A DNA stretch of 64,000 bases from Candidatus Acidiferrales bacterium (GCA_031296075.1 JARLGK010000046.1:13274-77273); one strand, 5' to 3'; shown: positions 1 to 33,066, numbered from the stretch's first letter. Notes: generated by a model from the letters alone, not told the origin. Numbers and translations are program-made.

Positions 1-26
1 AGAGAAGGAATGAACGCCGATTTTTC

Positions 27-43
27 GGTGGCTGAAAACCACC
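27..43. repeat. REP-like short hairpin GGTGG-CTGAAAA-CCACC in leading intergenic DNA
   Basis: 5-bp inverted repeat around a CTGAAAA loop, followed by CGTAGAACG. Same design as the hairpins at 7775, 15951 and 16038. Confidence 0.35.
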
Positions 44-230
44 ACGCCCGCTTCAAATCCACCAACGTAGAACGACGCCTTCGCATCAGTGTCCCGCGCA
101 CCATCCACTGCAAGCCTCTGTTTCTAATGGTGTTACGCCAACATCCCAAGAATTCGTGACTTTGGCACCGGCCCTGCAATACACGGGTTGGATTCGTAGA
201 TTTTTGGGCCATGATCCCGGGAGGTGCAGA

Positions 231-2405: not shown

Positions 2406-2437
2406 ACGAAACCTCTCCCGAGTGATTTGGCAACGCA

Positions 2438-2459
2438 CGGCCCCGAGAAATCGGGGCCG
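2438..2459 (+). terminator. Stem-loop CGGCCCCG-AGAAAT-CGGGGCCG downstream of the first FecR-like gene (no T-tract)
   Basis: 8-bp perfect stem with a 6-nt loop, 33 nt after the stop. It shares the CCGAGAAATCGG core with the terminator at 4722. No U-run follows, so terminator function is uncertain. Confidence 0.35.
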
Positions 2460-2674
2460 TGGCACATCAGGAACACGCGGGATGCGAGGATTCAGTAGAT
2501 TCCGTCGTTGGGACGTTGCGAAACAAGTCGGTCGCAGTGTTTTCGAGAGTGAGAGCTAGGAAACGTTATGTCGAACTTACGCGTGGTCGCATGGCTTGCG
2601 TGGCTGACGGCATGGGCATGGCTCGCGCGGGACAACATGCCGTCAAGGGAACGGCCACGATAGGAGGCAATCTC

Positions 2675-4693
2675 ATGAGGAAGATTAGCTCGCTCTTCAC
2701 ACTCGCGCTGTTTGTTGCAGGATTTGTTGCAATACTTCCGAAACCCGCCGCGGCGCAGGACGAAGACCCTCCCGGCCGCGTTGCGCGGCTCAACTATATT
2801 CAAGGCTCCGTTTCCTATCAGATATCGGGTGACCAGGACTGGGTGCAGGCCGATCCGAATCGCCCGCTCACGACGGGCGACAGCCTTTGGGCGGACAGGA
2901 ACTCGCGAGGCGAAGTCCACATCGGCAGCACGGCGATTCGCCTGTCGAACGAAACCGGTATTTCATTTCTGACGCTGGACGACCGTACGGTTCAGATCCA
3001 GCTCGCGCAAGGAGCCATCGAAGTTCACTTGCGAAATGTCGAATCCGGCGATGCGTTCGAGATTGATACGCCGAACCTCGCCTTCACGATCGACCGCGGA
3101 GGCGAATACCGCATCCAGACCGATCCCAACGGAGATTCCACCGTGATCGTGGTCCGCGAAGGCGCGGGCGAAGTGACCGGCGGAGGAGATTCCTGGGATC
3201 TGCCCGCCGGACAGATGTACACATTCACCGGCACGGACCAGCTTTCCTACGACGCTTCCGGCGCTCCCGGCTATGACGATTTCGAAGACTGGTGCGAGTC
3301 GCGCGATCAACGTGAAAACAGTTCCGTCTCGGCCAGATACGTCTCCCGCGATGTGGATGGATATTACGACCTCGACGAATACGGCGACTGGCACACCGAT
3401 CCCGACTACGGCGCCGTATGGGTGCCGCGAGGAGTTGATGCCGGATGGGCGCCCTATCAAACGGGCCACTGGATCTTTGTAGCACCGTGGGGCTGGACGT
3501 GGGTGGACGCGGAGCCGTGGGGCTTTGCGCCGTTCCACTACGGCCGCTGGGCATTCGTGGGCGGTTACTGGGGATGGGTCCCCGGCCCGATCGTCGTGCG
3601 GCCGATGTATGCGCCCGCGCTGGTCGCGTTCGTGGGAGGCGGCGGATTCGGCGTCTCCGTCTCTTTCGGCGGAGGAATGTCAGGCGTAGGTTGGTTCCCG
3701 CTCGGCCCGCGTGACGTGTTCATTCCCGGCTATCGCTGCAGCCCGCGCTACGTCCAGAACGTCAACATCACCAACACTCGCGTCATCAGCGTGACGCAGG
3801 TTACCAACGTGTACAACAATCACAACGTGACGGTCATCAACAACTATATCTACGCGCGCAACCAGAGAGCCGTCACCGCTGTTTCGCGGGAGACCTTCGT
3901 GAATGCGCGGCCCGTTTCCGGCGCTACGGTTCGCGTATCTGCCGATCAGATTCGGGGCGCGCGAATCGTCGAGACTTCGCCGATCGCCCCGACGCGGACA
4001 AGCTACATCTCATCCACCGCAAGAGTTTCAACCAACCGGCCCGCGGTTCCATTCACGCAGCGAGCCGTGGTTGCGCGGCTGAATCCGGCGGTCTCGCGCC
4101 CGGTCGTCCAGCCATCGGCCAATGGCAATCGCAATGACAACGGCAAGTTCGGCCGGGATCAGGGCAATCCGCAATACAATCCCCGCGGCGCCAACAGCAA
4201 CCTCAACAACGGTCAACAGCCTGCACGCGGAAACAATCCGCCACCAGCCGCAGTGAACAATAACAGCAACAACGCCCAGCAGTCCTCGCGTGGAAACAAT
4301 GCCCCGCCAGCCGCCGTGCACAACAACAGTAATCCGCCGCAAAACCAGCCGCAGTCGCGAGATGGCTACCGTCCGTTCCAGCGACCCGCCGGTGACACCA
4401 GTTCGCAGCCAGCTGGAGCGAACAACAACCAGAACAACAACGTCAATACGAACGGCACCAACAGCCAGAACAATCGTGGCCCGAATCGCAACGACCAAAC
4501 GACGCAAGGCGATCAGCGGCCGGCGGTAAAGTTCGCTCCTCCGGCGAAGGCGCGCGACGAGAATTATGACGTGCATCCGCCGCTGAACCAAAAGCAGGCG
4601 CAAACGCCGGCAAAACTAGAACAAAAGCAGGAACAGAAGCCAAACAAGGAAAACAACAAAGAAGACGATAAGAAGAAAGATGACAAGCACTAA
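2675..4693 (+). CDS. Secreted FecR-like / aromatic-Gly (DUF6600-like) domain protein, paralogue of 231..2405, with Asn/Gln/Pro tail and Lys/Asp/Glu terminus
   Basis: ATG at 2675 lies 8 nt after TAGGAGG. Signal/anchor MRKISSLFTLALFVAGFVAILPKPAAAQ. Blocks RVARLNYIQGSVSYQISGDQDWVQA, YGAVWVPRGVDAGWAPYQTGHW..WGWTWVDAEPWGFAPFHYGRW and GGGGFGVSVSFGGGMSGVGW. Tail has RGNN(P/A)PPAAV(N/H)NNSN duplicates and ends KENNKEDDKKKDDKH. Confidence 0.85.
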   Translation: MRKISSLFTLALFVAGFVAILPKPAAAQDEDPPGRVARLNYIQGSVSYQISGDQDWVQADPNRPLTTGDSLWADRNSRGEVHIGSTAIRLSNETGISFLTLDDRTVQIQLAQGAIEVHLRNVESGDAFEIDTPNLAFTIDRGGEYRIQTDPNGDSTVIVVREGAGEVTGGGDSWDLPAGQMYTFTGTDQLSYDASGAPGYDDFEDWCESRDQRENSSVSARYVSRDVDGYYDLDEYGDWHTDPDYGAVWVPRGVDAGWAPYQTGHWIFVAPWGWTWVDAEPWGFAPFHYGRWAFVGGYWGWVPGPIVVRPMYAPALVAFVGGGGFGVSVSFGGGMSGVGWFPLGPRDVFIPGYRCSPRYVQNVNITNTRVISVTQVTNVYNNHNVTVINNYIYARNQRAVTAVSRETFVNARPVSGATVRVSADQIRGARIVETSPIAPTRTSYISSTARVSTNRPAVPFTQRAVVARLNPAVSRPVVQPSANGNRNDNGKFGRDQGNPQYNPRGANSNLNNGQQPARGNNPPPAAVNNNSNNAQQSSRGNNAPPAAVHNNSNPPQNQPQSRDGYRPFQRPAGDTSSQPAGANNNQNNNVNTNGTNSQNNRGPNRNDQTTQGDQRPAVKFAPPAKARDENYDVHPPLNQKQAQTPAKLEQKQEQKPNKENNKEDDKKKDDKH

Positions 4694-4797: not shown

Positions 4798-7125
4798 CTA
4801 CGGCGACGCAGGGGACGCTGGCGGGGGCGCATTGGGCGCGGCCGGCGGCGCGGCGATGGGATTCGGCGACGTAGGCGCCTGCTCGAGCGCGAGGTAAGCG
4901 CGGCCAAAAGCGGATTGCTGCGTGCCAGCGCCGATCGCGACGGCCTGCACGGTATAGCGTCCCGAAGGCAATTTAGCGAGCGGCAGGCTGATGCGGTAGG
5001 AAGCCGTGCGCGTCTTCGCGTCAACGGCAGTAGACGCCAGCAGAGGCGTGGCGTTCACCTGCACGCCGCCGCGAAAGAACACCAGCCCGGCGCGGAGCGT
5101 GTTGGGATCGAATGCGTCGGCTTTGTCCGTCTTTTCCGGATAATACGCCTGAAAGAAAACGTAGAGTGTCTGCTGCTGGGTGAAAAAGCGCGTGACGCTC
5201 GGGACGATCTTCTCGCCTTCCATCTCGAGCGGCGACGCGGCGATTTGCGCGCGCGTTCCCTGCCCCCGCGTCTGAACCTCCGATGATTTCGCGACCGGCA
5301 CAAGCTGGCTCGATAGCAGCACGGAGCTGAGGCTCATGCGGGCGGCCGAGCGCTGGGGCACGTTGAGCGCCTGCTCGAATGTGCCGATTTTTCCGGATTC
5401 ATTTTCGCGCGCGAGGAATTTCAGCCGGTACGAGCCGGGCGCGAGCACCACGCCGCCCTGATACACTAGGTTGTTGCGACTCACTTCCTGAAACCGCTGC
5501 TCGTCGAGATGAACCGTGATTGTGTCGCGCAACTGAGCGACACTTTGTCCCGAGGGCACGGCGAGAATTTCGGCGGCAAAATCGAAGGCGGCTTCACGGC
5601 GGTCGTGCTTCTGCGCCCAGTCGAGCGCACTTGAAGAAAGCTTCGCGGAAATGGGAACGTACACCTGCTGGTCGTTCAGGCGGAACATCGAAGTTTCGAC
5701 CGCGATCGGCAGATCCACTTCCGGGCTCTCCGAACGCATGGCGTCCGCAAGCTGCTTTTCGCGGTCTTCTTTTTCAAGATGCTGAAAATCGCGCGGCGCG
5801 TAGTAGCCGCTGCGATAGCGGACGTGCGTTCCGGGCGCGTTGACCTTCACGCGGATAGCGTGCCAGCTGCCGTCGCGTTTCACTCCGGCAGGGAGATCGT
5901 AGCCGACCAGGTAGTATCCGCTGTTGTCCTGCTGGATCTTCGGGAAGGCGTCGCTCAGGTCGCCGAGGTCGAAAAATGCCTTGCCGCCCGTATCGGTCGA
6001 GAGCGTGGCAAGAGTGTCGCGCGAATTCTCGCGCTGATCGGTCTGGTGGTAAACGGATGCGCCGCTGAACATCGAAGTTCCGGTCGCGGCGTTGGTCGTG
6101 ACGTCACCGCCGGGAGGAGTGGCGAACATGCCGCGCGCGTCAATCGAGTAGATGGAGACGTCAGCGCGATTGGCGGCATCGGTGACGGCGCGCAACTCGG
6201 CGCGATTTTCCTCGCCCGTCTGCGTGATCCCGCCCGTGAATTCAACCAGCGCCTTTCGTCCGGGAATTCCCGCAAGCACATTCGCGAGGCCTTCGACTGC
6301 CGCAAGCTTCTGGTCGGTGTTGAACACGTTGAATTCGGTTTCGTCGGGCGTGTACGCCGCGCCGGTATATTCCTGAACGTCGTACTCGCCGTTTTGGGCG
6401 GCGGCGTAGAGCGGGTTCGCGATTTGCGATGCCGCACCGGGAACCAGCTGAGCGATGGCCTTGTCGAGCGTGGCGCGATTGTTTGTGAAATTCGCGAGCA
6501 CCGCAAGGCGCGTGCTGAACACCACGACGGAGACGAGATCGGCGGGCGTCATCTGCTGCTTTAGAAATTTTTGCGCTGCGGCGTGCGCGCGGAGAATGTC
6601 GTCCGTCTCCATCGAGGTCATGTCGAAGAACAGGACGATCATGCGGCGATCGCGGACCGTGTCCGTGACGGTGTCGGCGCCGGGCCCCGCGTTGTCCACG
6701 GGCACAACGATCGGCTTGGTGTCGCTCTCGGCGGCGGTCTCGATCTTTTCGATGTCCGAATAGGAGAAGCTGGAAATCTTCTGCTGCTTGCCGTCGTCGG
6801 TGACTTCGAACTGATCGGCGCGCAGTCCCTTGATCGGCTTCCCGGAACCGTCGGTGACTTCGACATCGATGCGGACAACATTGGACTGCGCGCGCAGAAC
6901 GAACGTGGGGTTTGTCGGCGGAGCCTGCCGCTGCGCCGGCGCTGGCGACGATTGCTCCTGCGCGATTGCGGAAAAGGGAGCGAAAAAGAGGCCCAGAGCG
7001 ACCAAATTAGCCACAAAAGGACGAAATACCCCACCATTGATTTTTTCTCGATTAGAACCGTGTCGAACGCCCTGTTTACAAGGGTTTTCGAGGGATTCTA
7101 ATAATTGGATTTCTCGATTAGACAT
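4798..7125 (-). CDS. VWA domain protein of the Acidobacteria-type (TIGR03436-like) family, secreted, Pro/Ala-rich C-terminus
   Basis: N-terminal hydrophobic segment VANLVALGLFFAPFSAIAQEQ. VVRIDVEVTDGSGKPIKGLRADQFEVTDDGKQQKISSFSY followed by MIVLFFDMTSM (MIDAS-region-like) and ALVEFTGG. C-terminus APPAAPNAPPPASPASP. Start chosen at Met83 of the ORF (7125) and is uncertain, since there is no clear RBS. Confidence 0.8.
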   Translation of the reverse strand: MSNREIQLLESLENPCKQGVRHGSNREKINGGVFRPFVANLVALGLFFAPFSAIAQEQSSPAPAQRQAPPTNPTFVLRAQSNVVRIDVEVTDGSGKPIKGLRADQFEVTDDGKQQKISSFSYSDIEKIETAAESDTKPIVVPVDNAGPGADTVTDTVRDRRMIVLFFDMTSMETDDILRAHAAAQKFLKQQMTPADLVSVVVFSTRLAVLANFTNNRATLDKAIAQLVPGAASQIANPLYAAAQNGEYDVQEYTGAAYTPDETEFNVFNTDQKLAAVEGLANVLAGIPGRKALVEFTGGITQTGEENRAELRAVTDAANRADVSIYSIDARGMFATPPGGDVTTNAATGTSMFSGASVYHQTDQRENSRDTLATLSTDTGGKAFFDLGDLSDAFPKIQQDNSGYYLVGYDLPAGVKRDGSWHAIRVKVNAPGTHVRYRSGYYAPRDFQHLEKEDREKQLADAMRSESPEVDLPIAVETSMFRLNDQQVYVPISAKLSSSALDWAQKHDRREAAFDFAAEILAVPSGQSVAQLRDTITVHLDEQRFQEVSRNNLVYQGGVVLAPGSYRLKFLARENESGKIGTFEQALNVPQRSAARMSLSSVLLSSQLVPVAKSSEVQTRGQGTRAQIAASPLEMEGEKIVPSVTRFFTQQQTLYVFFQAYYPEKTDKADAFDPNTLRAGLVFFRGGVQVNATPLLASTAVDAKTRTASYRISLPLAKLPSGRYTVQAVAIGAGTQQSAFGRAYLALEQAPTSPNPIAAPPAAPNAPPPASPASP

Positions 7126-16037: not shown

Positions 16038-16066
16038 CCAGCAGGATGCTGGTGCTACGAAGAGCC
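16038..16066. repeat. REP-like element: hairpin CCAGCA-GGA-TGCTGG + TGCTACGAAGAGCC tail
   Basis: The tail GCTACGAAG is identical to that of the element at 7775. It abuts the stop codon of the YceI gene. Confidence 0.45.
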
Positions 16067-16716
16067 TACTGTGCAGGAGAGATTCGCGCGGAGGCGTGGA
16101 TCTCGACGTTCACCGTGTCGCTGACGTGAAGGAGAAACGTGCTCGGATTCTTGAGTCCCCATTTCACATAGGGGACGCCGAACTGCGTCGAAGCCTGCAG
16201 TGACCCGCCCGCGCCCGGCAGCACCGAAAACGTGAGCGTTACTGGATCGTCCTGGCCGTGGAGGCGGATGACGCCGGACACCTCGACCTGAGAGGATCCT
16301 GTTTTTGGAATCGCGCCCTTGATTTGCGCCGGGGTGAAGACAATCTCCGGAAATTTGGCGCTTTCGAGAATTTGCGTGTGCATGTTCTTGTCGCGCGAAG
16401 TGTTGTCGGTGTTTCCGCTGGTCGCATCAATCACGATAGCGCCGCTGACATGCCCCGTCGCGGGGTCCCAGTGAATCTCCCCGTTCTTCAATTTAAACGT
16501 CCCGTGAACCGTATGCATCGTGGCTGCCAGCGTGAATTCGATTTTCGTGGCGGCCGGATCGAGGGTAATCACCGATTCCTGCGCGTGAAGCGCCGGAGCG
16601 AAAATGACGAGGCAAGCAACTACTAGAAGAGAACGGCTCCACCGCAGAGACGCAGGGAACGCAGGGGGGACAAAACCATCGTCGCGCGCGTGCCAAAAAT
16701 TAGGGTGAGGACTCAT
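16066..16716 (-). CDS. YceI-family (lipid/polyisoprenoid-binding, lipocalin-like) secreted protein
   Basis: Signal LLVVACLVIFAPALHAQ. TKIEFTLAATMHTVHGTFKLKNGEIHWDPATGHVSGAIVIDATSGNTDNTSRDKNMHTQILESAKFPEIVF matches the YceI core pattern. 3-nt gap to the upstream gene. Confidence 0.82.
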   Translation of the reverse strand: MSPHPNFWHARDDGFVPPAFPASLRWSRSLLVVACLVIFAPALHAQESVITLDPAATKIEFTLAATMHTVHGTFKLKNGEIHWDPATGHVSGAIVIDATSGNTDNTSRDKNMHTQILESAKFPEIVFTPAQIKGAIPKTGSSQVEVSGVIRLHGQDDPVTLTFSVLPGAGGSLQASTQFGVPYVKWGLKNPSTFLLHVSDTVNVEIHASARISPAQ

Positions 16717-16719
16717 CTG

Positions 16720-17823
16720 TTAGGCCCAGAGCACGCGCCAGCCAAGGTTGAAAATCGCGGAGGCCCCGAGCGCGTCCGACGCGGAGTCGCCGGTGTGAAC
16801 CGAGGTCAATTTCGCGAAAAGACCGGGATTCGCAGCGAAGAGCCGCAGCACCCTGCGACGCAGCGCCACGCTCGAGTTCATCCAAAGCAGGAGTTGCGTC
16901 ATGCGCACGGCCGGGCCGGTGATGCGACGGTGAGCGACTTCGTACTCGCGCAGATCGCCCGCGGCGAGCGCCTCGGCAAGTTCAATGGCCTGCTGGAACG
17001 CGAGGCTCAGCCCCTGCCCCGAGATGGAATCCACCGTACAGCTCGAATCTCCCACCAGCGCCACCGATCCGCGAACGACGGCGCGCGCCCTGCCAAACGA
17101 CGCAACCGCTCCGGCCTCGGATGAAAGCGGCTGGGCGCCGCGAAGGCGCCGGGCAATCGCGGGAAATTGATCGAAGGCGCGATCCATTCGCAAGCGCGAA
17201 TCGTCCACGAAGAGCGAAACACATATCTCACCCGCGCCGGTGGGAGTCACAACCATCTGCGATCTCTTGCCCCAATGCACCTCGACGAAATTGGTCCAGG
17301 GCGCGACCGCATAGTGACGGCGAAAACCGAAACGAGACCGATCCGGACGCCGCGAAACCAGTTCCGCGAACTGGCGGACGCTCGAATGTTGGCCATCGGC
17401 GCCGATGAGCCATTTGCACGGAAAGAATCGGCCGTTGACGCAAGCACCGTGCGAATCAAAACGCGAAATCCGCGCGCCCCACTCAAGGGAAACTCCCGTT
17501 TCGATCGCGCGGTCAATCAAGAGCTGGTGCAACGCGGTGCGACGCAGGCCCAAGGCGTGTCCATTGGGAATCCTTGCGCTGACCGAAGAAGTTTCATCTG
17601 TGAAGCGGAAGCCCTCAAAGGGAAAACCGGGGCCGGAATCAAGATCGATTCCGAGCTGGCGCAAAGCCGCCACCGCCTGAGGAAGCAAACCCTCACCACA
17701 AGGTTTGTTGATGGGAGGCTTTCTGGAATCAACGACCGTTACCCGGAAGTTCTTCAGGCTGGCCGCAATCGCCGCGGCCAGTCCGGCCGGCCCTCCACCG
17801 ACGACCAGAACATCAGGCCGCAA
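16720..17823 (-). CDS. FAD-dependent oxidoreductase, geranylgeranyl-reductase-like family
   Basis: DVLVVGGGPAGLAAAIAA dinucleotide-binding motif followed by KPCGEGL. ..LIGADGQHSSVR.. and ..ALVGDSSCTVDSISGQGLSLA.. (GD motif). Confidence 0.82.
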   Translation of the reverse strand: MRPDVLVVGGGPAGLAAAIAASLKNFRVTVVDSRKPPINKPCGEGLLPQAVAALRQLGIDLDSGPGFPFEGFRFTDETSSVSARIPNGHALGLRRTALHQLLIDRAIETGVSLEWGARISRFDSHGACVNGRFFPCKWLIGADGQHSSVRQFAELVSRRPDRSRFGFRRHYAVAPWTNFVEVHWGKRSQMVVTPTGAGEICVSLFVDDSRLRMDRAFDQFPAIARRLRGAQPLSSEAGAVASFGRARAVVRGSVALVGDSSCTVDSISGQGLSLAFQQAIELAEALAAGDLREYEVAHRRITGPAVRMTQLLLWMNSSVALRRRVLRLFAANPGLFAKLTSVHTGDSASDALGASAIFNLGWRVLWA

Positions 17824-17844
17824 TGTGGGACCCTCCGATGCTTT

Positions 17845-18897
17845 CTACCAGCGCAAGAGAAGCATCTCCGAGCAGAATCCGGGGCCCATGGCGGCGAGAA
17901 TACTCAGCGATCCAGGCTCCGGACGCCGATGCCGGTAAACATCCTCGAGAACGAGAAGGACGGACGTGGATGAAATGTTGCCCACCTTGCGTAAACATTC
18001 CCACGACGCCTCCAGATCCTTTTCCGTAAGGTCCAGCGCCGTAGCGGTGGCTTCGAGCACCTTCGGGCCACCGGTGTGCATGATCCAGCTCTGGATATCG
18101 CTTCGACGGTAACCTTGCTCCGCGAGAAACTCGTCCACATCCTGGCCCAGATGCTTCACCACCGTATCCGGAACTTCCGGTGACAGTACGATGTGAAAAC
18201 CCTTCTCGGAGATGTCCCAGCCCATCACGCGCTCGGTATTCGGGTAGAAGACGGACTTGGTGGCCAGGATTTCCGGCCCGTCCGATTCCACTTCATCTCC
18301 AACTACGACGGCCGCGGCGGCGCCGTCGCCAAAGAGCATCGCCGAGATCAGGTGCGCCATCGAAATGTCGTCCCGCTGGAGCGTGAGAGAACACAGCTCG
18401 ACGGACAACAGCGCGGCCGATTGATCCGGATAGGCGCGAACATAGTCGGCGGCCCGGGAAATTCCCGCGGCGCCGGCCACACAGCCAAGCCCGAAGATCG
18501 GGATACGCCTGATATTCGGCGACAGGCCCATGCGATTGATGAGCCGCGCGTCCAGCGACGGTGCCGCTATTCCAGTTACCGATGTAACGAAAATCGCGCC
18601 CAGGTCCCGCGGCTCGACTCCCGCGCCGACTAGCGCGTGGCACAGTGCTTTCTCGCCCAGCTCCAGCCCCATCTCGATCCAGACGTTGTTGGCCTCGCCC
18701 CACGTCTGCATCTGATTGTGGTAAAAATCGAGCGGGCGCACGGTGAACCGCCCATCCACCTTCATGCTCTCATCCAGGCGGTCGAGAATTCCCGGCTGAA
18801 CCAGACGATCCTTCCAATAGGCCTTGAGTGCGCCGACGAGAACTTCCTGTTTGTGGTAATACTTGGGAAAAGCGCTAGCGACTCCGGCGATTCTCAT
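17845..18897 (-). CDS. Type III polyketide synthase (chalcone/stilbene synthase superfamily)
   Basis: Catalytic-triad contexts FGLGCVAGAAG (Cys), IMHTGGPKVL (His) and VGNISSTSVL (Asn). ATG at 18897 (MRIAGVASAFPK) has GAGGAG 8 nt upstream. The longer ORF to 18945 lacks an RBS. Confidence 0.88.
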   Translation of the reverse strand: MRIAGVASAFPKYYHKQEVLVGALKAYWKDRLVQPGILDRLDESMKVDGRFTVRPLDFYHNQMQTWGEANNVWIEMGLELGEKALCHALVGAGVEPRDLGAIFVTSVTGIAAPSLDARLINRMGLSPNIRRIPIFGLGCVAGAAGISRAADYVRAYPDQSAALLSVELCSLTLQRDDISMAHLISAMLFGDGAAAAVVVGDEVESDGPEILATKSVFYPNTERVMGWDISEKGFHIVLSPEVPDTVVKHLGQDVDEFLAEQGYRRSDIQSWIMHTGGPKVLEATATALDLTEKDLEASWECLRKVGNISSTSVLLVLEDVYRHRRPEPGSLSILAAMGPGFCSEMLLLRW

Positions 18898-19142
18898 GAA
18901 TGCAGCTCCTCGGGCATCCGCCCGTGCGGAGGGCATCAAACTCATAAACGCAGATCGAGTGCATTTTCATCCCGATCGGTTGAATTTGGCCCCTTATTTG
19001 AATCTGAAGAACCCTTGCAACGTTCGAGCGCCCTTCTCAAGCGAGTCGGCGACGAGCGCCTCGTTCGACCCCGGCTCAAGCGATTCCTACATTAGCCGAT
19101 AACATCCGGCGGCCGTCCTGTGGCGTTGACGGGAATGCTCAT

Positions 19143-22721: not shown

Positions 22722-24971
22722 TCAGAACTGCCGCGCGAGGATGCCGGTCGCTATCGGAGTCGCGTCCTGATCGAACAGCAGCGCCGTATTGTCGTCGATC
22801 AGATAATAAATTAGCTTGAAGGTCGATGCCGGATTCGACGTGGCCAGGGTCGCGGTGCCTCGGCCATTTGCGGCAGGCGCACCGACCGAACTGCCCGTAG
22901 CGGTAATCGGATCCGAAAGCGAGACCGCGCTGAAAATGTTGATGTCGAGATTTCCGCCGGTGATCGCCGTTGTGCTCAGCGTGACTTGTCCGGATGCATC
23001 CGGTTGGTACAAAGAGGCGTCATTGTGGAATATGCCTTGGCCGGTTAATCCGATCGCGAAACTTCCGCCCAGCAGCGAGACGGCCGCGGAACACGCTGCC
23101 GCTGGCGGCACACACTGCTGGTAGGCCGTGCCTGTGGACAGCGCATTGGAATCGATTTCGAGCATCAAAGCCGTTCCTTGCGATGTCTGGTAGACCGCGA
23201 ATTCGTTGGTGCTGGAATTCGGCAACGACGGGCAAGCGCCCGTGCCGGTAAACATCTTGAGATCGATTCGGCCGGTGGTCGCGTCCGTGGTGTACGACGA
23301 ACATGAGTTGATCGTCGGACCACTATTGTACGAGCCGCCGCTATTGCCGTCGAAAATGCCCGCGGAAATGCCGCCATTCCCGCCTGAAGTGAAGACTCCT
23401 CCCGCAGCGTAGGCCCCGAGGACCGAAGGCTTCCCGGAGACGGGAACCATGGTGTTCCCGCCGCCGGTGAAAACGTAATTGCCGGCTGTCAGCGCCGCAG
23501 GTCCGGCCGGCGCGCTGAACATGTCTCCCGCGACGTACGCTTTCCTATCGATCTCGATCAGATGCAGCCGCGTGACGAAGTCAGGGCCGTTCGGATTGGC
23601 GGGAGCATCCACGCCGTAAAACGCGTACAGGCGCGAACCCGTGGTGTTGCTTATGAGCGTAATTGTCCCGCGCCCGGTTCCGCTGAATACCGGATCGAAC
23701 TGATACGTGCCGTGAAGCGACGTGTCGCTGGTCGTCACCGTGCCGCTGGAGATGCCATTATCGTTGACGTCGAGAATCGTATTCGTCTCCGCGATTCCCC
23801 CGGCGCCATCCGCCGCGAATTTTCCCGCCATTCCCAAAGCGTTGAAACCGGCGTCGGCGCCCAACAGGCTGAATACGTAGTGCCCCGTAATCACCGATGC
23901 GGAATTCGAGACGGCATCCAGGCTCTGCTGGTCAATCGTTCCGCCGCCAGTGGTATTCGCGTCGAACAGAGTCATCTGACCGTGCTGGCTGGTCGTCAGC
24001 GCAAATTGCCATGTATCGGGTCCTTGCCCGGTGCTGATCTTCGCGTTGACGCGCCCATCGGGCCCCACCACGTAAGTGCCACTGAGGGAAACCTGGGTCG
24101 CGACTCCCGTCAGAAAGCTGTCCACGTCTTCGACGCCGCTGAGAATCTTGCCATTGCCGTCCGCGACAAAACTTCCCGCCACAGCCAGGAAACCAGACTG
24201 GTCATTCCCAGTGTAGGAAAACGCGTAGGGTCCGTTAAGAGAATGATCGGAATAAACAATCGTCACGGTGGACGTCGCCGGAGCGGTGGCGGCAGGGTCC
24301 GTGGCCGTGACGGTGATCGTGGCGCCCGGCGGAGGACTCAGCGGCGCCGTGTAGACGCCGCTGGAATCGATCGAGCCATAAATCGCTGTGTCGGTTGACG
24401 GCGTAACTGTCCAAGTCGCATTGTTGTCCGTCAAGCCGTTCAGCAACGCGGAAAACTGATGAATGCCACCCGCCGGAACCGTCACGGAGGTCGGAGTCAC
24501 TGTGAGACCCGAGCCGGCTCCTACGGTGACGATGGCGGTGTTGGACGTAACCGTGGGAGACGTCGTAGTCGTGCTGGTGGTCTGCGTGGCCACGGCGGTG
24601 ATACTCACTTGACCCACCTGCGTGACTCCAGGAGTGGCGGTGGTCGGCACCGACCCCGGCGCCGTATACACGCCCAGCAACTGATTGTCGGTCGAGGGCA
24701 CAATCGAACCCACGGTCGCCAGGTTTCCGTTCGCGATACCGTTTACTTCCCACGTGACGGTGGTGGTCGTCGAAGTTGACGTGTCGGACAGATTAACGAC
24801 AGCGGTGAATTGAGTGGTGGTATTCAGCGGGACCGTGATCGTTGTGGGCGTGATCGCCACCGACGTCACGGTGGTCGTACCGCTGCCACTACCGCCGCAG
24901 CCCTGCAGGCTCCAGACGCCAACCAGCATCAGCGCAATCAGGGCGAGAGCACGAGTTCCCGCCGACGGCAT
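22722..24971 (-). CDS. Large lipoprotein with N-terminal Ig-like (Big_2-type) domains and repeated Gly-rich C-terminal modules
   Basis: Lipobox MPSAGTRALALIALMLVGVWSLQGC at Met95 of the ORF. VTSVAITPTTITVPLNTTTQFTAVV, VTWEVNG and LTVTPTSVTVPAGGIHQFSALL are Ig-like. Later recurring G.Y.F...G......AG.F..DG.GGI motifs. Confidence 0.75.
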   Translation of the reverse strand: MPSAGTRALALIALMLVGVWSLQGCGGSGSGTTTVTSVAITPTTITVPLNTTTQFTAVVNLSDTSTSTTTTVTWEVNGIANGNLATVGSIVPSTDNQLLGVYTAPGSVPTTATPGVTQVGQVSITAVATQTTSTTTTSPTVTSNTAIVTVGAGSGLTVTPTSVTVPAGGIHQFSALLNGLTDNNATWTVTPSTDTAIYGSIDSSGVYTAPLSPPPGATITVTATDPAATAPATSTVTIVYSDHSLNGPYAFSYTGNDQSGFLAVAGSFVADGNGKILSGVEDVDSFLTGVATQVSLSGTYVVGPDGRVNAKISTGQGPDTWQFALTTSQHGQMTLFDANTTGGGTIDQQSLDAVSNSASVITGHYVFSLLGADAGFNALGMAGKFAADGAGGIAETNTILDVNDNGISSGTVTTSDTSLHGTYQFDPVFSGTGRGTITLISNTTGSRLYAFYGVDAPANPNGPDFVTRLHLIEIDRKAYVAGDMFSAPAGPAALTAGNYVFTGGGNTMVPVSGKPSVLGAYAAGGVFTSGGNGGISAGIFDGNSGGSYNSGPTINSCSSYTTDATTGRIDLKMFTGTGACPSLPNSSTNEFAVYQTSQGTALMLEIDSNALSTGTAYQQCVPPAAACSAAVSLLGGSFAIGLTGQGIFHNDASLYQPDASGQVTLSTTAITGGNLDINIFSAVSLSDPITATGSSVGAPAANGRGTATLATSNPASTFKLIYYLIDDNTALLFDQDATPIATGILARQF

Positions 24972-25294
24972 ATGCCGCCCGTCGCACGGACGGCGAACGC
25001 TCCTTGCCGAATTGCTCTTTCCGATCGCGCTCGCCATCTGCATAGCCTTCAGGCTGTTCATCGAGAAGTCGTCTCCCAGGGGGATGAAAGGGTGTAGGAT
25101 CATTCCGCATCGACGGAAAAAAGTTCCATTTTCTTCAGGAACGGCTGTGGCGGGCAAGCTCCGCACGGATCTGATGACATACAGGCCAGCCCACCCCCGA
25201 TTGCTGCAAACACCCGGATAGGAAGATGTAAATGCAGGAGATTTGGTTGTCACGCACCCCCCGGCGTTTCTTGGGCCGACCCGGAGGGAAATTC

Positions 25295-28335: not shown

Positions 28336-28528
28336 TGGTCCCTATGCGGACAACGTGGAAGTCATCTTATAACGAAGCCTCGCCGGACGACAAAGACAAC
28401 CGCGCGGCCGCAGTGGGCCGGATTGAAAAACCCAGCCGTAATCAGCGAGCGCTGGTCCGGTTCGCGCGTCTATCAGGCATGCGGATTGAAGCGTCCGAAA
28501 GTACGGTCTGATCGCGTCGAGTTCCGAA

Positions 28529-29254
28529 CTACTCGTTCAGGATTACGCTGCGGAGGCCACTGTGGACTGTCATTTCTCTGCTGTTGTAATCGATAAAGCC
28601 AAGCTTCCTGAACTTATTCATGAAGAGATTAATCCGCGACCGGGTTGTGCCGACCATTTGTGCCAAGTTTTCATGATTGATCCCGGGAACTACAGTTTCG
28701 GTCTTGCTCTCCTTGTTAAAATGGGACAGCAACAGGAGAATCCGAGCCAGGCGCTTCTCGGTAGAGTTGAAAAGCTGGTCGACGAGATCCGCTTCGTATC
28801 GGATGTTGCGGGAAAGCAGATGAGTGACAAATAATTCCGCGAGCCCCTGCTCTTCGTGGAGCATTCGTGCCATGATGGGCTTCTCAACCCTGATAAGAGT
28901 GCAATCTCCCACTGAAATAGCCGTTGCCATGCGCAACGGCTGACCTGCCAGGCATCCTTCACCGAAAAATTCACCGGAGCCCAGAGTGCCGACAATCGCT
29001 TCCTTGCCTTCGAAGGATGTAACCGCGAGCTTCACCTTGCCCCGTAGGAGAAAGAGCACGGAATCCGCAGGCGCTCCTTGCACGAAGATGCTGTCCTCCG
29101 CACCGTATTCTAAAACGGTTTTCCCCTTGGAGATTCCTGTCAGGAGGGTTTCCCAATCGGCAGTCGGGCGTTTCTTGTCCGCTGCAACGGGCGCGTTCTT
29201 CTTATCCACGGGCAAGCTCTTCCTCCGAGCCATAACGACCGTATTTCCCATCAC
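28529..29254 (-). CDS. Crp/Fnr-family transcriptional regulator (cNMP-binding domain + HTH)
   Basis: IFVQGAPADSVLFLLRGKVKLAV..GKEAIVGTLGSGEFFGEGCL cNMP-binding barrel. C-terminal ENLAQMVGTTRSRINLFMNKFRKLGFI HTH. Start is GTG 29254 or ATG 29251, and both overlap the kaiB stop (GTGATG). Confidence 0.88.
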   Translation of the reverse strand: MMGNTVVMARRKSLPVDKKNAPVAADKKRPTADWETLLTGISKGKTVLEYGAEDSIFVQGAPADSVLFLLRGKVKLAVTSFEGKEAIVGTLGSGEFFGEGCLAGQPLRMATAISVGDCTLIRVEKPIMARMLHEEQGLAELFVTHLLSRNIRYEADLVDQLFNSTEKRLARILLLLSHFNKESKTETVVPGINHENLAQMVGTTRSRINLFMNKFRKLGFIDYNSREMTVHSGLRSVILNE

Positions 29255-29619
29255 TCCCGTATTTTCAGGTCCAGTCCGAAGAGCACTTTGTTTTGGTCCG
29301 ACAGGTCCCCAATGAGCCTTCGCAGCGGGCGCGGGAGCCGTTTAATGAGCGTGGGCACCGCCACAATCTGCTCGTCTCTGGCCAGATTCGCCTGCAGACA
29401 AATGTCGATGATTTCCAGGTCATACCGACCATTCAAGTGCTGCTCACAAACCTGCTTGATATTCTCTACAGCCAGCGTTGATTTCAACGTGGATCCGTTT
29501 ATGTACAAACGCAAGACGTACTTTACCTCGAGAGAATGGGAGCCAGGCCGCTCCATTTCTCCGGGTGATATGGGTTTTCGCTTTCCCGCCGAGCGGGTCT
29601 TTTTCGTGGACTTTTTCAC
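29251..29619 (-). CDS. kaiB: KaiB-family protein (copy 2 in operon order) with 30-aa basic N-terminal extension
   Basis: [84 protein letters not shown] aligns by eye along its length with cyanobacterial KaiB (LKLYVAG.TP.S..A..L..I.., ATPTLAK.LP.PVRRIIGDLSD.EKVLIGLDL). Confidence 0.9.
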   Translation of the reverse strand: MKKSTKKTRSAGKRKPISPGEMERPGSHSLEVKYVLRLYINGSTLKSTLAVENIKQVCEQHLNGRYDLEIIDICLQANLARDEQIVAVPTLIKRLPRPLRRLIGDLSDQNKVLFGLDLKIRE

Positions 29620-29639
29620 GTGGACCTTTCTGAGCTTGG

Positions 29640-29975
29640 TCAGACTACCGGTTGCAGCGCCAAGCCAATCAACGTCCGCTCGGTATTGGACAGGTCTCCA
29701 ATGATCTTTCGGACAGGCCCCGGAAGATCTCTTACCAGGGTCGGAACTGCTACGATCTGGTCGCCGCGCGCCATATCGGGATTCTCCAAAATATCTATCA
29801 CTTCGATCCGGTAGCAGCCCTTCAAGTGTTTTTCACACAGCACCTTGAGGTTGGCAAAGGCGCGAATCGATTTGGGAGTCTGGCCCGCGACGTAGAGCCG
29901 CAGCTTCCAAAATTCCGGTTTCGGGGGCGTCGATTTGCGAGGCCGCGCCGGAGTTTTTGTCTTGGTTTTCGACAT
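29640..29975 (-). CDS. kaiB: KaiB-family protein (copy 1 in operon order) with 20-aa basic N-terminal extension
   Basis: [85 protein letters not shown]. The ATG directly abuts the kaiC TAA (TAAATG). Confidence 0.92.
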
Positions 29976-31733
29976 TTAGCGTTTCCGCGCGGCTGGCGTG
30001 CCCCCCACCTTCTTGTAGGCGGAGGTGTCCGCTTCCCGGCTCCGCACCATCTGCCCGCGGTCCTGCAACACTTCCTCGGCGAGCAATTTCGATTCGGAGA
30101 TGCTCTGTTGAATTGTTTCTTCCTCCACTTCAAACTCTGCCCTGAGCATGGTCATGCGGGCCTCAAAAATCTGGCGCTTGCGCTCGAGTTCGCGTCGGCG
30201 GGTCTCCTGTTCTTGCTGGCGGAACGTGACCACTGCTTTCTCGCGCATTTCCTGCGACACCCGGGCGGAACCGGTCAGCACGCCCTCCGGTCCGAGGTAT
30301 ACATCCAGCATTCGGAGGCCGTCGTTGGTGAGCACGAATTCGCGAATCTGGTTGGAATGCTCCATGCCTCGCGATTTCAGCACGTAGAGTGCGCGGTTCC
30401 GCTCTCCTCCGACCTCGATGGCTTTCAGCAGGAGCCAGGTGTCCATCAGGGAGGAGACGTCCGCCTCGCTGGCTTCCAGGGAGCCGCCTGCCGCGGTCAA
30501 ACTGGTGAAAATCGCGGTGATCTCCTTGGTCTTCAGAAAATCGACCAGCCGCGTGAGCATGGACCGCACTTCGTTCAGCGTGCTGACCATGAGCAGATTG
30601 GTAATCGGGTCCACCACCACGATGCTGGGCTGGAAGCTGGAGATGTGTTTGTGGGTCACGAGCAGGACTTCTTCGATCCCCCCGTAGGTGGGACGCGCCG
30701 CATGAAATTGCAGGAGCCCTTTGCGGACCCATGGCTCGAGATCGATGCCGATCGAACGCATATTGCGGACGACCTGCCGGGGTGATTCCTCGAACGCGAA
30801 ATACAAACAGCGCTCGCCGCGGCGGCAGGCCGCATCCACGAAATGTGCCGCCACGCTGGTTTTACCGGTTCCGGAGGTGCCAGAGAGCAGAATGCTGCTG
30901 CCCTGATAAAAGCCCTTGCCGCCCATCATGCCATCCAACCGGTCAATGCCAGTCGAGACTCGTATGGCGGACGCCGCATGGTCCAGGCCCAGCGAGGAGA
31001 TCGGCAGGACTGAAATGCCGTGTTCGTCGATGAGGAACGGATACTCGTTCGTACCGTGGGTCGATCCCCGATACTTAACGACGCGCAGGCGACGGGTCGA
31101 GATCTCCTCCCGGATACGATGGTCCAGGACGATCACGCAGTCTGAGACGAACTCCTCGATGCCGTGCCGGGTCAGCTTGTCCGGCCGGTCCCGCTCGGCG
31201 GTAATGACCGTGGTCAATTTTTTTTGCTTCAGCCAGTCGAACAGGCGGCGGATTTCGGCGCGCAGGATACCTGGGTTTGGCATCTCGCCGAAGAGCGCTT
31301 CAATGGTGTCCAGGACGATTCGCCGCGCCCCGACTCTCTGGACAGCGTCGGCAATTCGAATGAAGAGGCCATCGAGGTCATACTCCCCGGTTTCCGCAAT
31401 CTCACTTCGCGAGATGTGCACGTGGTCCAGGAAGAGCTTCTTCTCTGCCACCAGGCGGTCCAGGTCGAAACCCAGTGAAGCGGCGTTTTGGGTCAGGTCC
31501 GGGATCGTTTCCTCGAACGACATGAACACGCCGGGTTCGTTGTATTGCGTGGCACCGCGAACCAGGAATTCCAGTCCGAACAGTGTCTTTCCGGAACCGG
31601 CACCTCCACTGACAAGAGTGGGACGCCCGTTTGGCAACCCTCCCCCCGTGATTTCGTCCAACCCCTGGATTCCGGTAGACGCTTTCGGCAGCGTTTTGGA
31701 AGATGGTTGCCTTGCTTTCTGCTTTTGTGTCAT
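29976..31733 (-). CDS. kaiC: KaiC (double RecA-like domain circadian-clock-family ATPase/autokinase) with extended charged C-terminus
   Basis: GIQGLDEITGGGLPNGRPTLVSGGAGSGKT (CI Walker A), VFMSFEET. GIDRLDGMMGGKGFYQGSSILLSGTSGTGKT (CII Walker A), LYFAFEES. EADVSSLMDTWLLLKAIEVGGERNRALYVLKSRGMEHSNQIREF matches the phosphosite/CII region. 585 aa versus about 520 aa for cyanobacterial KaiC. Confidence 0.93.
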   Translation of the reverse strand: MTQKQKARQPSSKTLPKASTGIQGLDEITGGGLPNGRPTLVSGGAGSGKTLFGLEFLVRGATQYNEPGVFMSFEETIPDLTQNAASLGFDLDRLVAEKKLFLDHVHISRSEIAETGEYDLDGLFIRIADAVQRVGARRIVLDTIEALFGEMPNPGILRAEIRRLFDWLKQKKLTTVITAERDRPDKLTRHGIEEFVSDCVIVLDHRIREEISTRRLRVVKYRGSTHGTNEYPFLIDEHGISVLPISSLGLDHAASAIRVSTGIDRLDGMMGGKGFYQGSSILLSGTSGTGKTSVAAHFVDAACRRGERCLYFAFEESPRQVVRNMRSIGIDLEPWVRKGLLQFHAARPTYGGIEEVLLVTHKHISSFQPSIVVVDPITNLLMVSTLNEVRSMLTRLVDFLKTKEITAIFTSLTAAGGSLEASEADVSSLMDTWLLLKAIEVGGERNRALYVLKSRGMEHSNQIREFVLTNDGLRMLDVYLGPEGVLTGSARVSQEMREKAVVTFRQQEQETRRRELERKRQIFEARMTMLRAEFEVEEETIQQSISESKLLAEEVLQDRGQMVRSREADTSAYKKVGGTPAARKR

Positions 31734-31846
31734 TTGTTTTGTCCTGGCCCGGGCGATCTACGGCGGGTTGGCAATGGCGTCATGGCCCCTCCTCGCGGGT
31801 CGCCCTTATCGAAGGCGGTCCAAAGGGGCCACTCGGTCCCTTCATA

Positions 31847-31870
31847 GACTGCTTTTCTAGAAAAGCAGTC
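31847..31870. promoter_or_regulatory. Perfect 24-bp palindrome GACTGCTTTTCTAGAAAAGCAGTC upstream of kaiC (candidate operator or hairpin)
   Basis: Read directly. 12+12 nt with no mismatches, centred about 125 bp upstream of the kaiC ATG (31733). Function not demonstrated. Confidence 0.4.
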
Positions 31871-32295
31871 GTAGATTATGCAAGACTTTACCAGGATACG
31901 CTAGCGCCTTACCATGCACGCCGCTGAAGAGGAAGCGGACGCAACAGCAGTTTGGCGGTTCTTCGCTTAACCGGTACCAATCGCCCAACGGCTAGATTTA
32001 TTTCTTCTTCGCGTGCGGACATTGCTATGCGCGGCTTCGCCATTTCCTTCTTGACGCTGGCAAGTGTCGCGTTGCCGGGTTCTTTCTTCACTTTATTATG
32101 TAACATTGGGCCATCGTGACATCGAGATGCAATCAATGCAGTCCCATTTCGCACAGTTCCGAAACATACGGGCTGCTGCAATGACGTACTAACTCCTGGT
32201 AAGTCGGATTATCAGAGAAATAAAATCCAGTCGCGGTCCTACGTCCATGTGCCCGCCGATAGCTCACCGATTCTGCATCCGAGGCCCTTTCAGGA

Positions 32296-33066
32296 TTACT
32301 TGGGGGGATCTAGCTTGAGCGCAATTTCCAAGTTGGCGCTGGAAGAAAGTTCGCCCATTTGATATTTCACGTCCTGCCAAATCATGGTGGATCGACCGAT
32401 GACTCGAACCTTGGCTGTAGCTTCTGAGGAGGTTTGCAGCCACATGGGGCCGACATAGCCATACAGCAGGACGATGCGCGCGTCCGTTACCCACCAGGAG
32501 GGGTTCTGTGTAGGCTCACCCTCGATGCGCAGTGGTAGGTAACTGTGGGCATCCACCCAAATGGACCCGCGGAGTAGGTTCCTGGATTTTCGCTTGGGTA
32601 CCAGGTCGAGCATATAGCAGCGTTGGCCGTTAATCTCATCTTCGCGCACGAACCGGAAATCATAGTTTTCGCGAGTAATGTCGCTCGGGCGGGAGTCTTT
32701 TGCAAACGCCACCTCAGCGTCCAGTATTTTGCGGACGATTTTCTCTTCCAAGAGAGCTCTGTTAGGATTTTCAATCGTGTATTTCTTAGAGTCCGGAGTC
32801 GCGACGGACATCTCGGCGATCAAGCGGGACCTTACCTGATCTTGATTATTGCCCCTAAAGAGCTTGTAGTCGCGCGTCACTCTATACGGGCGAAAGTGAG
32901 TGCGATTTTCACCCTCGGCCTGCGTCATTTGAGCAATGATTTCTGCGTTTGTCGGAATCTGCCTCTGCGTCTGAGCCGAGACGCATGTCACAGCCATGCA
33001 ATAGACGAAAATCGAGCACGCTAATTGCGCCCTGGAAGTCACTTTGAAACTCCGCTTAGCACTCAC
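32296..33066 (-). CDS. LolA-like outer-membrane lipoprotein-sorting-protein family protein (secreted)
   Basis: Signal CSIFVYCMAVTCVSAQ. ENYDFRFVREDEINGQRCYMLDLVPKRKSRNLLRGSIWVDAHSYLPLRIEG fits the LolA_like pattern (Y.F.L.GEE.V.G..CY.L.L.PK....L..G.IW.D..TYLP). Lower GC than surroundings. Confidence 0.55.
   Translation of the reverse strand: MSAKRSFKVTSRAQLACSIFVYCMAVTCVSAQTQRQIPTNAEIIAQMTQAEGENRTHFRPYRVTRDYKLFRGNNQDQVRSRLIAEMSVATPDSKKYTIENPNRALLEEKIVRKILDAEVAFAKDSRPSDITRENYDFRFVREDEINGQRCYMLDLVPKRKSRNLLRGSIWVDAHSYLPLRIEGEPTQNPSWWVTDARIVLLYGYVGPMWLQTSSEATAKVRVIGRSTMIWQDVKYQMGELSSSANLEIALKLDPPK

Follow-up and report, generated by a model that had tools for sequence, protein, structure and literature searches.

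A regulator of the Crp/Fnr family occupies, in one group of acidobacterial kai operons, the place where most related operons carry a histidine kinase (HK). The operon described here lies in a 64,000-nucleotide (nt) stretch of DNA from a Candidatus Acidiferrales bacterium (the window; all positions are counted from its first letter), and comprises kaiC, two kaiB genes (kaiBa and kaiBb) and crp. The simplest history, as read from related loci, is that a PAS-HisKA_3 HK and a NarL-type response regulator (RR) were swapped once for Crp in one acidobacterial clade. With moderate confidence, Crp can be regarded as the functional partner and DNA-binding arm of a KaiA-independent timer or energy-state module of the KaiC2 type. 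Such wiring of kaiBC to crp in soil Acidobacteriota, with the kinase and the RR replaced by Crp, is apparently undescribed, as no description of a kaiBC-crp arrangement was found in the literature.

Replacement of the kinase by Crp

A KaiC-based scan of species-representative genomes gave 80 loci (L001-L080), in which the neighborhood was viewed over 7 kb on each side of kaiC. Close acidobacterial orthologues, with KaiC identities of 77-95%, account for 24 of them; the other 56, at 58-65% identity, belong to Planctomycetota, Desulfobacterota, Chloroflexota, Bacteroidota, Myxococcota, Methanoperedens and others. In the 53 crp-less loci with a callable next gene, the gene directly past the last kaiB encodes a PAS domain in 48 cases and a HATPase_c domain in 40. 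This bears out the suggestion of a first-pass annotation of the window, made from its sequence, that an operonic link to Crp departs from the usual neighboring kinase. A "kaiC-B-PAS/HK operon" is on record in the literature (PMC4794148), and Pseudomonas KaiC binds an HK, most likely via the PAS domain of the kinase (bioRxiv 10.1101/2022.01.26.477890). Independent gene calls for one further locus (L161) give a kinase version of the operon with equally tight packing. Homologues of the Kai-linked HK among the 120 matches listed are all at least 91% identical.

The 24 close acidobacterial loci fill the slot after kaiB in two ways. Thirteen have a Crp orthologue (58-84% identical) right after kaiB, and neither an HK nor an RR gene is present within 7 kb of kaiC in any of these 13. 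In eight others the same slot holds a PAS-HisKA_3 kinase of about 400 residues, followed by a NarL/GerE-type RR; the last three loci are truncated. In the KaiC tree, all Crp-linked loci including that of the window form one clade (bootstrap 86/100), which is sister to an HK-linked clade (92/100), with further HK-linked lineages below. It is this nesting of the Crp clade within HK lineages that makes a single replacement the simplest history.

A reverse scan, starting from Crp, gave 80 metagenomic relatives of 62-100% identity. Forty-nine of them directly follow kaiB, 23 are unlinked and all of these are paralogues at 62-70% identity, and the contigs of the remaining eight are too short for a linkage call. 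Every relative above about 70% identity that has enough upstream sequence is preceded by kaiB. The 62 linked Crps are monophyletic in the Crp tree, the only extra members of their clade being two of the too-short contigs. The link between kaiBC and crp proposed in the first-pass annotation is thus found in 13 species genomes and 49 metagenome contigs besides the window, and is monophyletic in the KaiC and Crp trees alike. It is kept down to about 58-65% identity in Crp and 77% in KaiC, with constant order and strand in more than 60 loci. The genes of the linked loci are co-directional, and their spacers almost always measure 1-123 nt. As KaiC and the KaiBs are well conserved in the Crp clade (77-96% identity), some output of the system must exist.

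The window itself was covered by calling 48 plausible genes and scanning essentially all of its open reading frames (ORFs; about 49) against Pfam. Neither a KaiA domain nor a histidine-kinase domain (HATPase_c, HisKA) is present in these ORFs, and a tblastn search of the 64 kb with the Kai-linked HK and RR of sister genomes gives no match. The earlier statement that the 64 kb contain no kaiA, no kinase of the SasA/CikA type and no RpaA is upheld by both searches.

Three loci show other arrangements. L021, which has a kaiC-kaiB-kaiB-HK-RR order and two crp genes, was considered as an evolutionary intermediate and rejected, since its Crps group with the unlinked paralogues. In L131 (positions 11-3139), a kaiC-kaiB-kaiB unit of the distant type (59%) is directly preceded by the gene of a Crp paralogue of 68% identity, a second and independent juxtaposition in another order. 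The Kai-linked crp of L024 (9502-10104) appears to be split over three frames in the metagenome-assembled genome (MAG), owing either to decay into a pseudogene or to faulty assembly.

Organization of the operon

The four minus-strand ORFs listed in the first-pass annotation were recovered with the same coordinates (Table 1), and its junctions were all re-read in the sequence: TAA is followed directly by ATG (0 nt) between kaiC and kaiBa, 20 nt separate kaiBa from kaiBb, and kaiBb overlaps crp in GTGATG. The only terminator-like hairpin of the operon region follows crp, and the next gene, which is galT-like, comes after a gap of 193 nt. The tight junctions and the position of the hairpin predict that kaiC-kaiBa-kaiBb-crp is probably a single co-directional operon.

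Table 1. Predicted genes and sites of the kai operon, and the two distant regulator-like genes of the window.
Feature	Position	Strand	Remarks
kaiC, KaiC2 type	29976..31733	-	585 residues; two KaiC domains, Ser427-Ser428, C-terminal extension of ~85 residues
kaiBa	29640..29975	-	111 residues; first-position KaiB orthologue group
kaiBb	29251..29619	-	122 residues from GTG; 101 residues from ATG 29556; second-position KaiB orthologue group
crp, Crp/Fnr family	28529..29254	-	241 residues from GTG; 240 residues from ATG 29251, one codon on
Terminator-like hairpin with T-rich tail	28399..28414	-	~115 nt past the crp stop; probable operon end
Crp-type dyad box CTGTGCGAAATGGGACTG	32139..32156	-	423 nt upstream of the kaiC ATG; given in kaiC orientation
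Sigma-70-like promoter match ATGTCA-16-CATAAT, tentative	32095..32122	-	-10 hexamer not conserved in relatives
Conserved non-coding leader	31734..32138	-	between box and kaiC; from alignment with L002, L083, L086, L088, L091
REC-PilZ protein	60818-61534	-	only receiver domain in the window; ~29 kb from the kai genes, unrelated to the Kai-linked RR
GerE/LuxR-type helix-turn-helix protein, no detectable receiver	60111-60767	+	~29 kb off, unrelated to the Kai-linked RR

The first-pass annotation took the last junction for translational coupling of crp to kaiBb. The overlap is real, but it is not conserved, as kaiBb and crp of the nearest relatives (L001, L002, L083, L088) are separated by a conserved spacer of about 85 nt. 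Alignment with these relatives places a clean deletion of the spacer in the window, joining GGGAGTGA to TGGGAAAT, and by this comparison the GTGATG overlap is the product of a lineage-specific deletion. The loss of the spacer suggests that crp is able to rely on upstream expression. A promoter of its own for crp in the spacer of the relatives was considered and rejected: the spacer has neither a sigma-70-like promoter match nor a terminator match, although acidobacterial promoters may differ from that consensus.

Two of the start codons are ambiguous. The basic N-terminal extension of KaiBb can be aligned from residue 1 in many relatives, and other gene callers prefer the shorter forms. Crp is on record in its ATG form, and a look-up found no exact record of the GTG-start form.

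KaiC and the two KaiBs

KaiC matches Pfam PF06745 in two stretches (E = 1e-111). It scores 732.6 bits against NCBIfam NF006799 (PRK09302; cut-off 408), and 381.6 bits, under the cut-off of 546.25, against the cyanobacterial equivalog TIGR02655. Its translation contains the Walker A motifs GGAGSGKT and GTSGTGKT, the FEET/FEES pairs and EADVSSLMDTW, which confirms the double-domain protein with a Ser-Ser pair proposed in the first-pass annotation. KaiC and the KaiBs are bona fide members of their families, and KaiC is no generic RecA/RadA ATPase.

The closest solved KaiC is that of Rhodobacter sphaeroides (KaiC_RS, 8DBA; 617 bits), to which residues 16-567 align, including the coiled-coil tail; cyanobacterial KaiC structures reach about 360-380 bits. 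Residues ~500-567 correspond to the tail of 8DBA, so that a coiled coil and a dodecamer are predicted here as well. In the alignment, S427-S428 of EADVSSLMDTW pair with the Ser-Ser of LSSLMDGW in KaiC_RS. Hallmarks of KaiC2 are Ser-Ser at the phosphosite and about 50 additional residues at the C-terminus; the tail forms a coiled coil linking two hexamers, which leads to KaiA-independent autophosphorylation, and the KaiC2 hourglass cycle is driven by KaiB and the ATP/ADP ratio (PMC10076222, PMC5520375, PMC11372060). The Ser-Ser pair, singled out in the first-pass annotation, is hence a feature already known (PMC5520375, PMC10076222). Because the proteins are closest to KaiC_RS and KaiB_RS and the Ser-Ser pair and the tail are matched, the core of the locus is, by homology, a system of a known kind, namely the KaiC2 or R. 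sphaeroides hourglass type.

Both small proteins, called KaiB in the first pass, are well above the PF07689 cut-off of 27 (KaiBa, 89.2 bits; KaiBb, 84.8 bits). Their scores remain under the cut-offs of two KaiB equivalog models: 102.7 and 88.6 against NF006798 (cut-off 110), and 99.9 and 83.6 against TIGR02654 (cut-off 145.3). The closest solved relative of both is KaiB_RS (8FWJ_M), with 101 bits for KaiBa and 83 bits for KaiBb.

The duplication of kaiB, which had been put forward as a distinctive trait, turns out to be common. Of the 80 KaiC2 loci, from bacteria and archaea, 56 have a pair of kaiB genes after kaiC, and two have three. The nearest neighbor of a first-position KaiB is another first-position KaiB in 48 of 57 cases, and that of a second-position KaiB another second-position one in 49 of 53; mean distances are 0.31 and 0.38 inside the two groups and 0.48 across them. 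KaiB_RS groups with the first-position proteins. By these sequence comparisons, the tandem kaiB is an ancient duplication that has produced two orthologue groups in a fixed order in many phyla and in Methanoperedens. Being ancient and widespread, the duplication is uninformative on any peculiarity of the window locus. Eight Crp-linked loci have a single kaiB, and KaiBb is thus dispensable for the association with crp. A limited literature search found no discussion of the two-KaiB arrangement. Most KaiC2 operons hold both ancient paralogues, and biochemistry has so far dealt with the first type only.

The Crp protein

The product of the fourth gene has the cNMP_binding domain (PF00027, 65.7 bits) and the HTH_Crp_2 domain (PF13545, 39 bits), both above the cut-offs, so that its first-pass identification as a cNMP-binding, helix-turn-helix (HTH) regulator of the Crp family is correct. 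It reaches 41.3 bits against the CRP equivalog NF008732, for which the cut-off is 266. The phosphate-binding cassette reads FGE...R-M-A, in which the Arg is kept and the Ser/Thr is changed to Met, and this is the same across the subfamily. An N-terminal cysteine cluster of the FNR type was not found, as residues 1-99 have no Cys; the protein has two in all, C100 (GEGC) and C117 (GDC). Kai-linked and unlinked Crps are alike in the ligand-pocket motif GEFFGEGCLAGQPLRMATA and in the recognition-helix core GTTRSR, and differ consistently at about six positions: F68, A139, T185, V189, I208 and N209.

An operator candidate upstream of kaiC

In an unbiased count of 5-mer dyads over the 350 nt that precede kaiC, one pattern only emerges, TGTGC-N6-GCACA. 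Allowing at most one mismatch, it occurs in 9 of 14 upstream regions of the Crp clade, as against 0 of 11 of the HK clade. The consensus of these sites is CTGTGCAATTnnG(A/C)ACAG; their distance from kaiC, on its upstream side, is 85-360 nt. Scored with leave-one-out matrices, the Crp clade shows upstream sites of 14.8-26 bits at 12 of its 13 loci, and in 8 of the 13 the box is the top score of the whole locus of about 15 kb; HK-clade loci mostly score below 11 bits. An independent metagenome set gives the same picture, with at least 15 bits in 10 of 14 loci whose upstream region is full-length (about 600 nt) and in 12 of 20 when shorter regions are included. A score of at least 15 bits is reached by about 3% of random 600-nt windows and by 0 of 50 distant KaiC2 loci. 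The difference in box scores is significant by the Mann-Whitney test (p = 3e-4 for the comparison with the HK clade, 1e-6 for that with the distant loci), with values somewhat inflated by shared ancestry. These counts make the sequence a CRP-like operator candidate that is specific to the Crp clade.

The box of the window, at 12.4 bits, is the best weight-matrix match on both strands of the 64 kb, and its score is reached by 1 of 50 upstream regions of distant KaiC2 loci. It aligns with the stronger boxes of the nearest relatives at about -410 to -445, and is positionally homologous to those of L001, L002, L083, L088, L089, L091, L101 and L107. The sigma-70-like match downstream of it would place the transcription start about 60 nt downstream of the box center, a class-I-like geometry; this match is given little weight because of its unconserved -10 hexamer. 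From the co-occurrence of box and protein only, we infer that Crp binds the box, and Crp probably autoregulates the kai operon.

Between the box and kaiC, the window and its nearest relatives share a leader of about 400 nt whose nucleotide sequence is conserved. An open frame within it evolves without codon periodicity, so that the leader may be a structured 5' untranslated region. This frame, of 65 codons (31909-32106), is open in six relatives and was rejected as a fifth gene: substitutions are flat over the codon positions (241/240/247), the ratio of synonymous to non-synonymous changes is equal in the three frames, and there is no Pfam match. An Rfam search of leader and operon gave no riboswitch or known RNA at E <= 1.

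A perfect 24-bp palindrome, GACTGCTTTTCTAGAAAAGCAGTC, lies in the leader at 31847-31870, 114 nt upstream of kaiC. As an operator it was rejected, being missing in L001 and imperfect in L002, L003, L083, L086 and L088. The relatives keep its outer ACTG...CAGT arms alone, with a compensatory ATTG...CAAT in L002. Lacking a T-run, the palindrome is no typical terminator. In the sub-lineage of L001 (~6728-6907), L101 and L107, the window-type leader is replaced by a small conserved CPxCG frame (...SVPCPSCGV...LYSGGLRLEPHVLRKL.AIE...) directly upstream of kaiC, which could encode a small zinc-ribbon-like protein.

The box also occurs away from kai operons. An attempt to derive a Crp regulon from box-adjacent genes elsewhere (two for radical-SAM enzymes, DUF1003, a glycosyltransferase and unknowns) was uninformative. 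Autoregulation of the unlinked Crp paralogues was rejected as well, as the box is rarely found before their own genes and more often just downstream of a crp. The 15.7-kb locus L008 is a local hot-spot, having about ten boxes of the TGTGC-N6-GCACA type and two Crp-family genes around its kai operon.

A possible mechanism and its alternatives

By combining these observations with what is established for KaiC_RS, a possible sequence of events can be outlined. KaiC would autophosphorylate at Ser427/Ser428, by homology, because its long C-terminal tail would pair two hexamers through a coiled coil. KaiBa would then bind phosphorylated KaiC and drive the return half-cycle as the ATP/ADP ratio falls, again by homology. 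In the clade, as the comparison of loci shows, a one-component Crp/Fnr factor replaced the PAS-HisKA_3 HK and its NarL-type RR, most simply in a single event, and has been co-inherited with kaiC-kaiB ever since. The Crp dimer would bind the TGTGC-N6-GnACA box, which appears to have arisen upstream of kaiC in exactly the Crp lineage, and the kaiC-kaiBa-kaiBb-crp transcript would be autoregulated through this box. With the kinase pair lost, the Kai state would most parsimoniously reach transcription through Crp. It might reach Crp if KaiB-KaiC bound or sequestered the protein directly, or only through co-expression together with Crp's own ligand.

The first of these routes, in which the KaiC-KaiB hourglass directly gates Crp by binding or sequestering it in a phospho-state-dependent manner, with a transcriptional feedback loop, is a tentative proposal and, taken by itself, rather unlikely. 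If direct gating held, and Crp also bound the box of its own operon, a non-phototrophic soil bacterium would possess a minimal two-layer timer that needs no kinase, in which a post-translational KaiBC cycle runs inside a transcriptional feedback loop.

Several points weigh against Crp as the DNA-binding arm of the module. First, every member of the Crp clade comes from MAGs or metagenome contigs. The weak box of the window has 12.4 bits, where others have 15-28, and 423 nt separate it from the ATG; a good box is absent from L003 and from several metagenome loci. Furthermore, the box is a general motif of the Crp subfamily, found beside other genes as well; just upstream of the L001 box, a Crp paralogue of 45% identity is encoded. 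The binding protein could hence be a paralogue and not the Kai-linked Crp. No extra domain is present in the Kai-linked Crps, and four of the approximately six positions at which they differ from the unlinked ones are in or near the HTH, a pattern more in keeping with adjusted DNA specificity than with a new surface for docking. HKs and RRs were looked for in the 64 kb of the window and within 7 kb of kaiC in the relatives, and an orphan pair may be encoded elsewhere. Of the undescribed output architecture suggested in the first-pass annotation, the crp gene in the kinase slot, for which no published description was found, stands; that Crp reads the Kai state and acts as the timer output is something we only infer, the protein being set apart from its paralogues by some six positions.

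An alternative that is possible, though the less likely, confines Crp to the input side. Its own small-molecule or redox signal would switch the kai operon through the box, and the Kai output would pass through partners elsewhere, such as an unlinked HK or direct targets of KaiC. The location of the box upstream of the operon agrees with this, as do the ligand pocket and architecture of Crp, which are so close to those of the unlinked paralogues that the signal of the subfamily has probably been kept. In Pseudomonas, moreover, KaiC homologues cross-interact with non-cognate kinases (bioRxiv 10.1101/2022.01.26.477890). Against an input role stand the exact coincidence of HK-RR loss with Crp gain in one clade and the conservation of KaiC and the KaiBs there, which demands an output; neither the 7-kb neighborhoods in the 13 genomes nor the window shows a kinase.

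The system could also be a responder to stress or energy state, like those of Legionella and Pseudomonas, instead of a day-night timer. Crp would then act on a stress regulon in response to a signal from nutrients, redox state or a cyclic nucleotide. A link to stress resistance is on record for KaiC homologues outside cyanobacteria (PMC5520375; bioRxiv 10.1101/2022.01.26.477890), the host lineage is non-phototrophic and comes from soil or peat according to the MAG titles, and radical-SAM enzymes are encoded by two of the box-adjacent genes elsewhere. This is improbable as a separate explanation: KaiC is nearest to the biochemically defined hourglass KaiC_RS, sequence does not separate the roles of timer and stress responder, and the proposal is one about physiology that can hold together with the architecture preferred here, in which Crp is the partner of the Kai proteins.

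That crp is a mere hitch-hiking neighbor, functionally unrelated to the kai genes, might be thought from the many paralogues of its subfamily scattered in these genomes, some of them near kai loci and in other positions (in L001 before kaiC, in L131 before a distant-type kaiC, in L021 after HK-RR), but it is hardly credible given the constant order and strand in more than 60 loci, a linkage that held while Crp diverged to about 58-65% and KaiC to 77% identity, the monophyly in both trees, the mutual exclusion of Crp and HK-RR, the restriction of the kaiC-upstream box to the Crp clade, and a spacer that could be deleted to leave an overlap.

Other genes of the window

The operon is flanked by seemingly unrelated genes, for LolA-like, cytochrome c and amino-acid permease proteins on one side and for GalT-like, DUF218 and bactofilin proteins on the other. 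The LolA/RseB-like lipoprotein gene (32296-33066) lies just upstream of the kai operon and has homologues of 45-52% identity in L122, L127, L146 and L150, which are within 1-2 kb of unlinked Crp paralogues; this hints at an older association of crp with LolA-like genes. The GerE/LuxR-type HTH gene and the REC-PilZ gene of Table 1 are convergent neighbors.

Three further regions can be mentioned. On the minus strand at 16066-18945, genes for a type III polyketide synthase (chalcone/stilbene synthase-like), an FAD-dependent monooxygenase/halogenase-like enzyme and a YceI-like protein stand in a row that resembles a small secondary-metabolite or alkylresorcinol-type cluster. An ORF of 843 residues at 22722-25253 has no Pfam match and an odd GC content by codon position (GC1 0.53, GC2 0.57). 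At 156-4693, two neighboring paralogues of about 745 residues each both have DUF6600, the first also a FecR domain.

Comparison with known systems

The route from non-cyanobacterial KaiBC to gene expression is largely obscure, and a neighboring PAS HK has been the only recurrent clue so far. The clade described here presents a natural swap, in which an HK and an RR gave way to a single DNA-binding protein that has long been retained, with a recognizable operator appearing before the operon. The swap offers one small protein, one defined DNA site and one regulon-predicting motif as testable items. The variant is genuine and conserved, and lends itself to direct tests in vitro; its core is known and all its members are from uncultured organisms.

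The KaiBC hourglass of R. sphaeroides (8DBA, 8FWI, 8FWJ; PMC10076222) is the nearest described system. It shares with the window a KaiC aligned at 617 bits with its tail, the Ser-Ser pair and the lack of KaiA, and KaiBa and KaiBb are both nearest to KaiB_RS. The window differs in having two KaiB paralogues, where KaiB_RS is of the first type only, and in having a Crp-family regulator, not a PAS HK, after kaiB. The kaiC-kaiB-PAS/HK operon of Rhodopseudomonas palustris (PMC4794148) is likewise a tight co-directional unit of kaiC, kaiB and, in third place, a signaling protein; the window has no PAS-HK in the operon or in the 64 kb, and has Crp there instead. The NarL-type RR of the acidobacterial sister clade is also missing from the 64 kb.

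The cyanobacterial KaiABC-SasA/CikA-RpaA system has in common with the window a double-domain KaiC, a KaiB and an output that ends at a DNA-binding regulator. Unlike it, the window has no KaiA, SasA, CikA or RpaA, its KaiC misses the TIGR02655 cut-off and has Ser-Ser in place of Ser-Thr, and the candidate output is a one-component protein without a phosphorelay. The KaiC-like/HK/RR modules of Pseudomonas (bioRxiv 10.1101/2022.01.26.477890) also belong to non-phototrophs, and their KaiC homologue is thought to reach transcription via neighboring signaling proteins. These are a KaiC-bound HK and single-domain RRs, whereas the neighbor in the window is itself DNA-binding and has no kinase nearby.

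Among the Crp/Fnr regulators, the protein of the window is ordinary in its combination of cNMP_binding and HTH_Crp_2, and the half-sites and spacing of the TGTGC-N6-GnACA dyad resemble those of the E. coli CRP site, TGTGA-N6-TCACA. The closest solved structures, GlxR of Corynebacterium (4CYD) and Crp of Mycobacterium (3H3U), have a low similarity of about 58 bits. The window protein departs from the known regulators in its cassette (R-M-A against R-S/T-A) and in its recognition helix (R-S-R-I-N-L against R-E-T-V-G-R), and from FNR in lacking the cysteine cluster.

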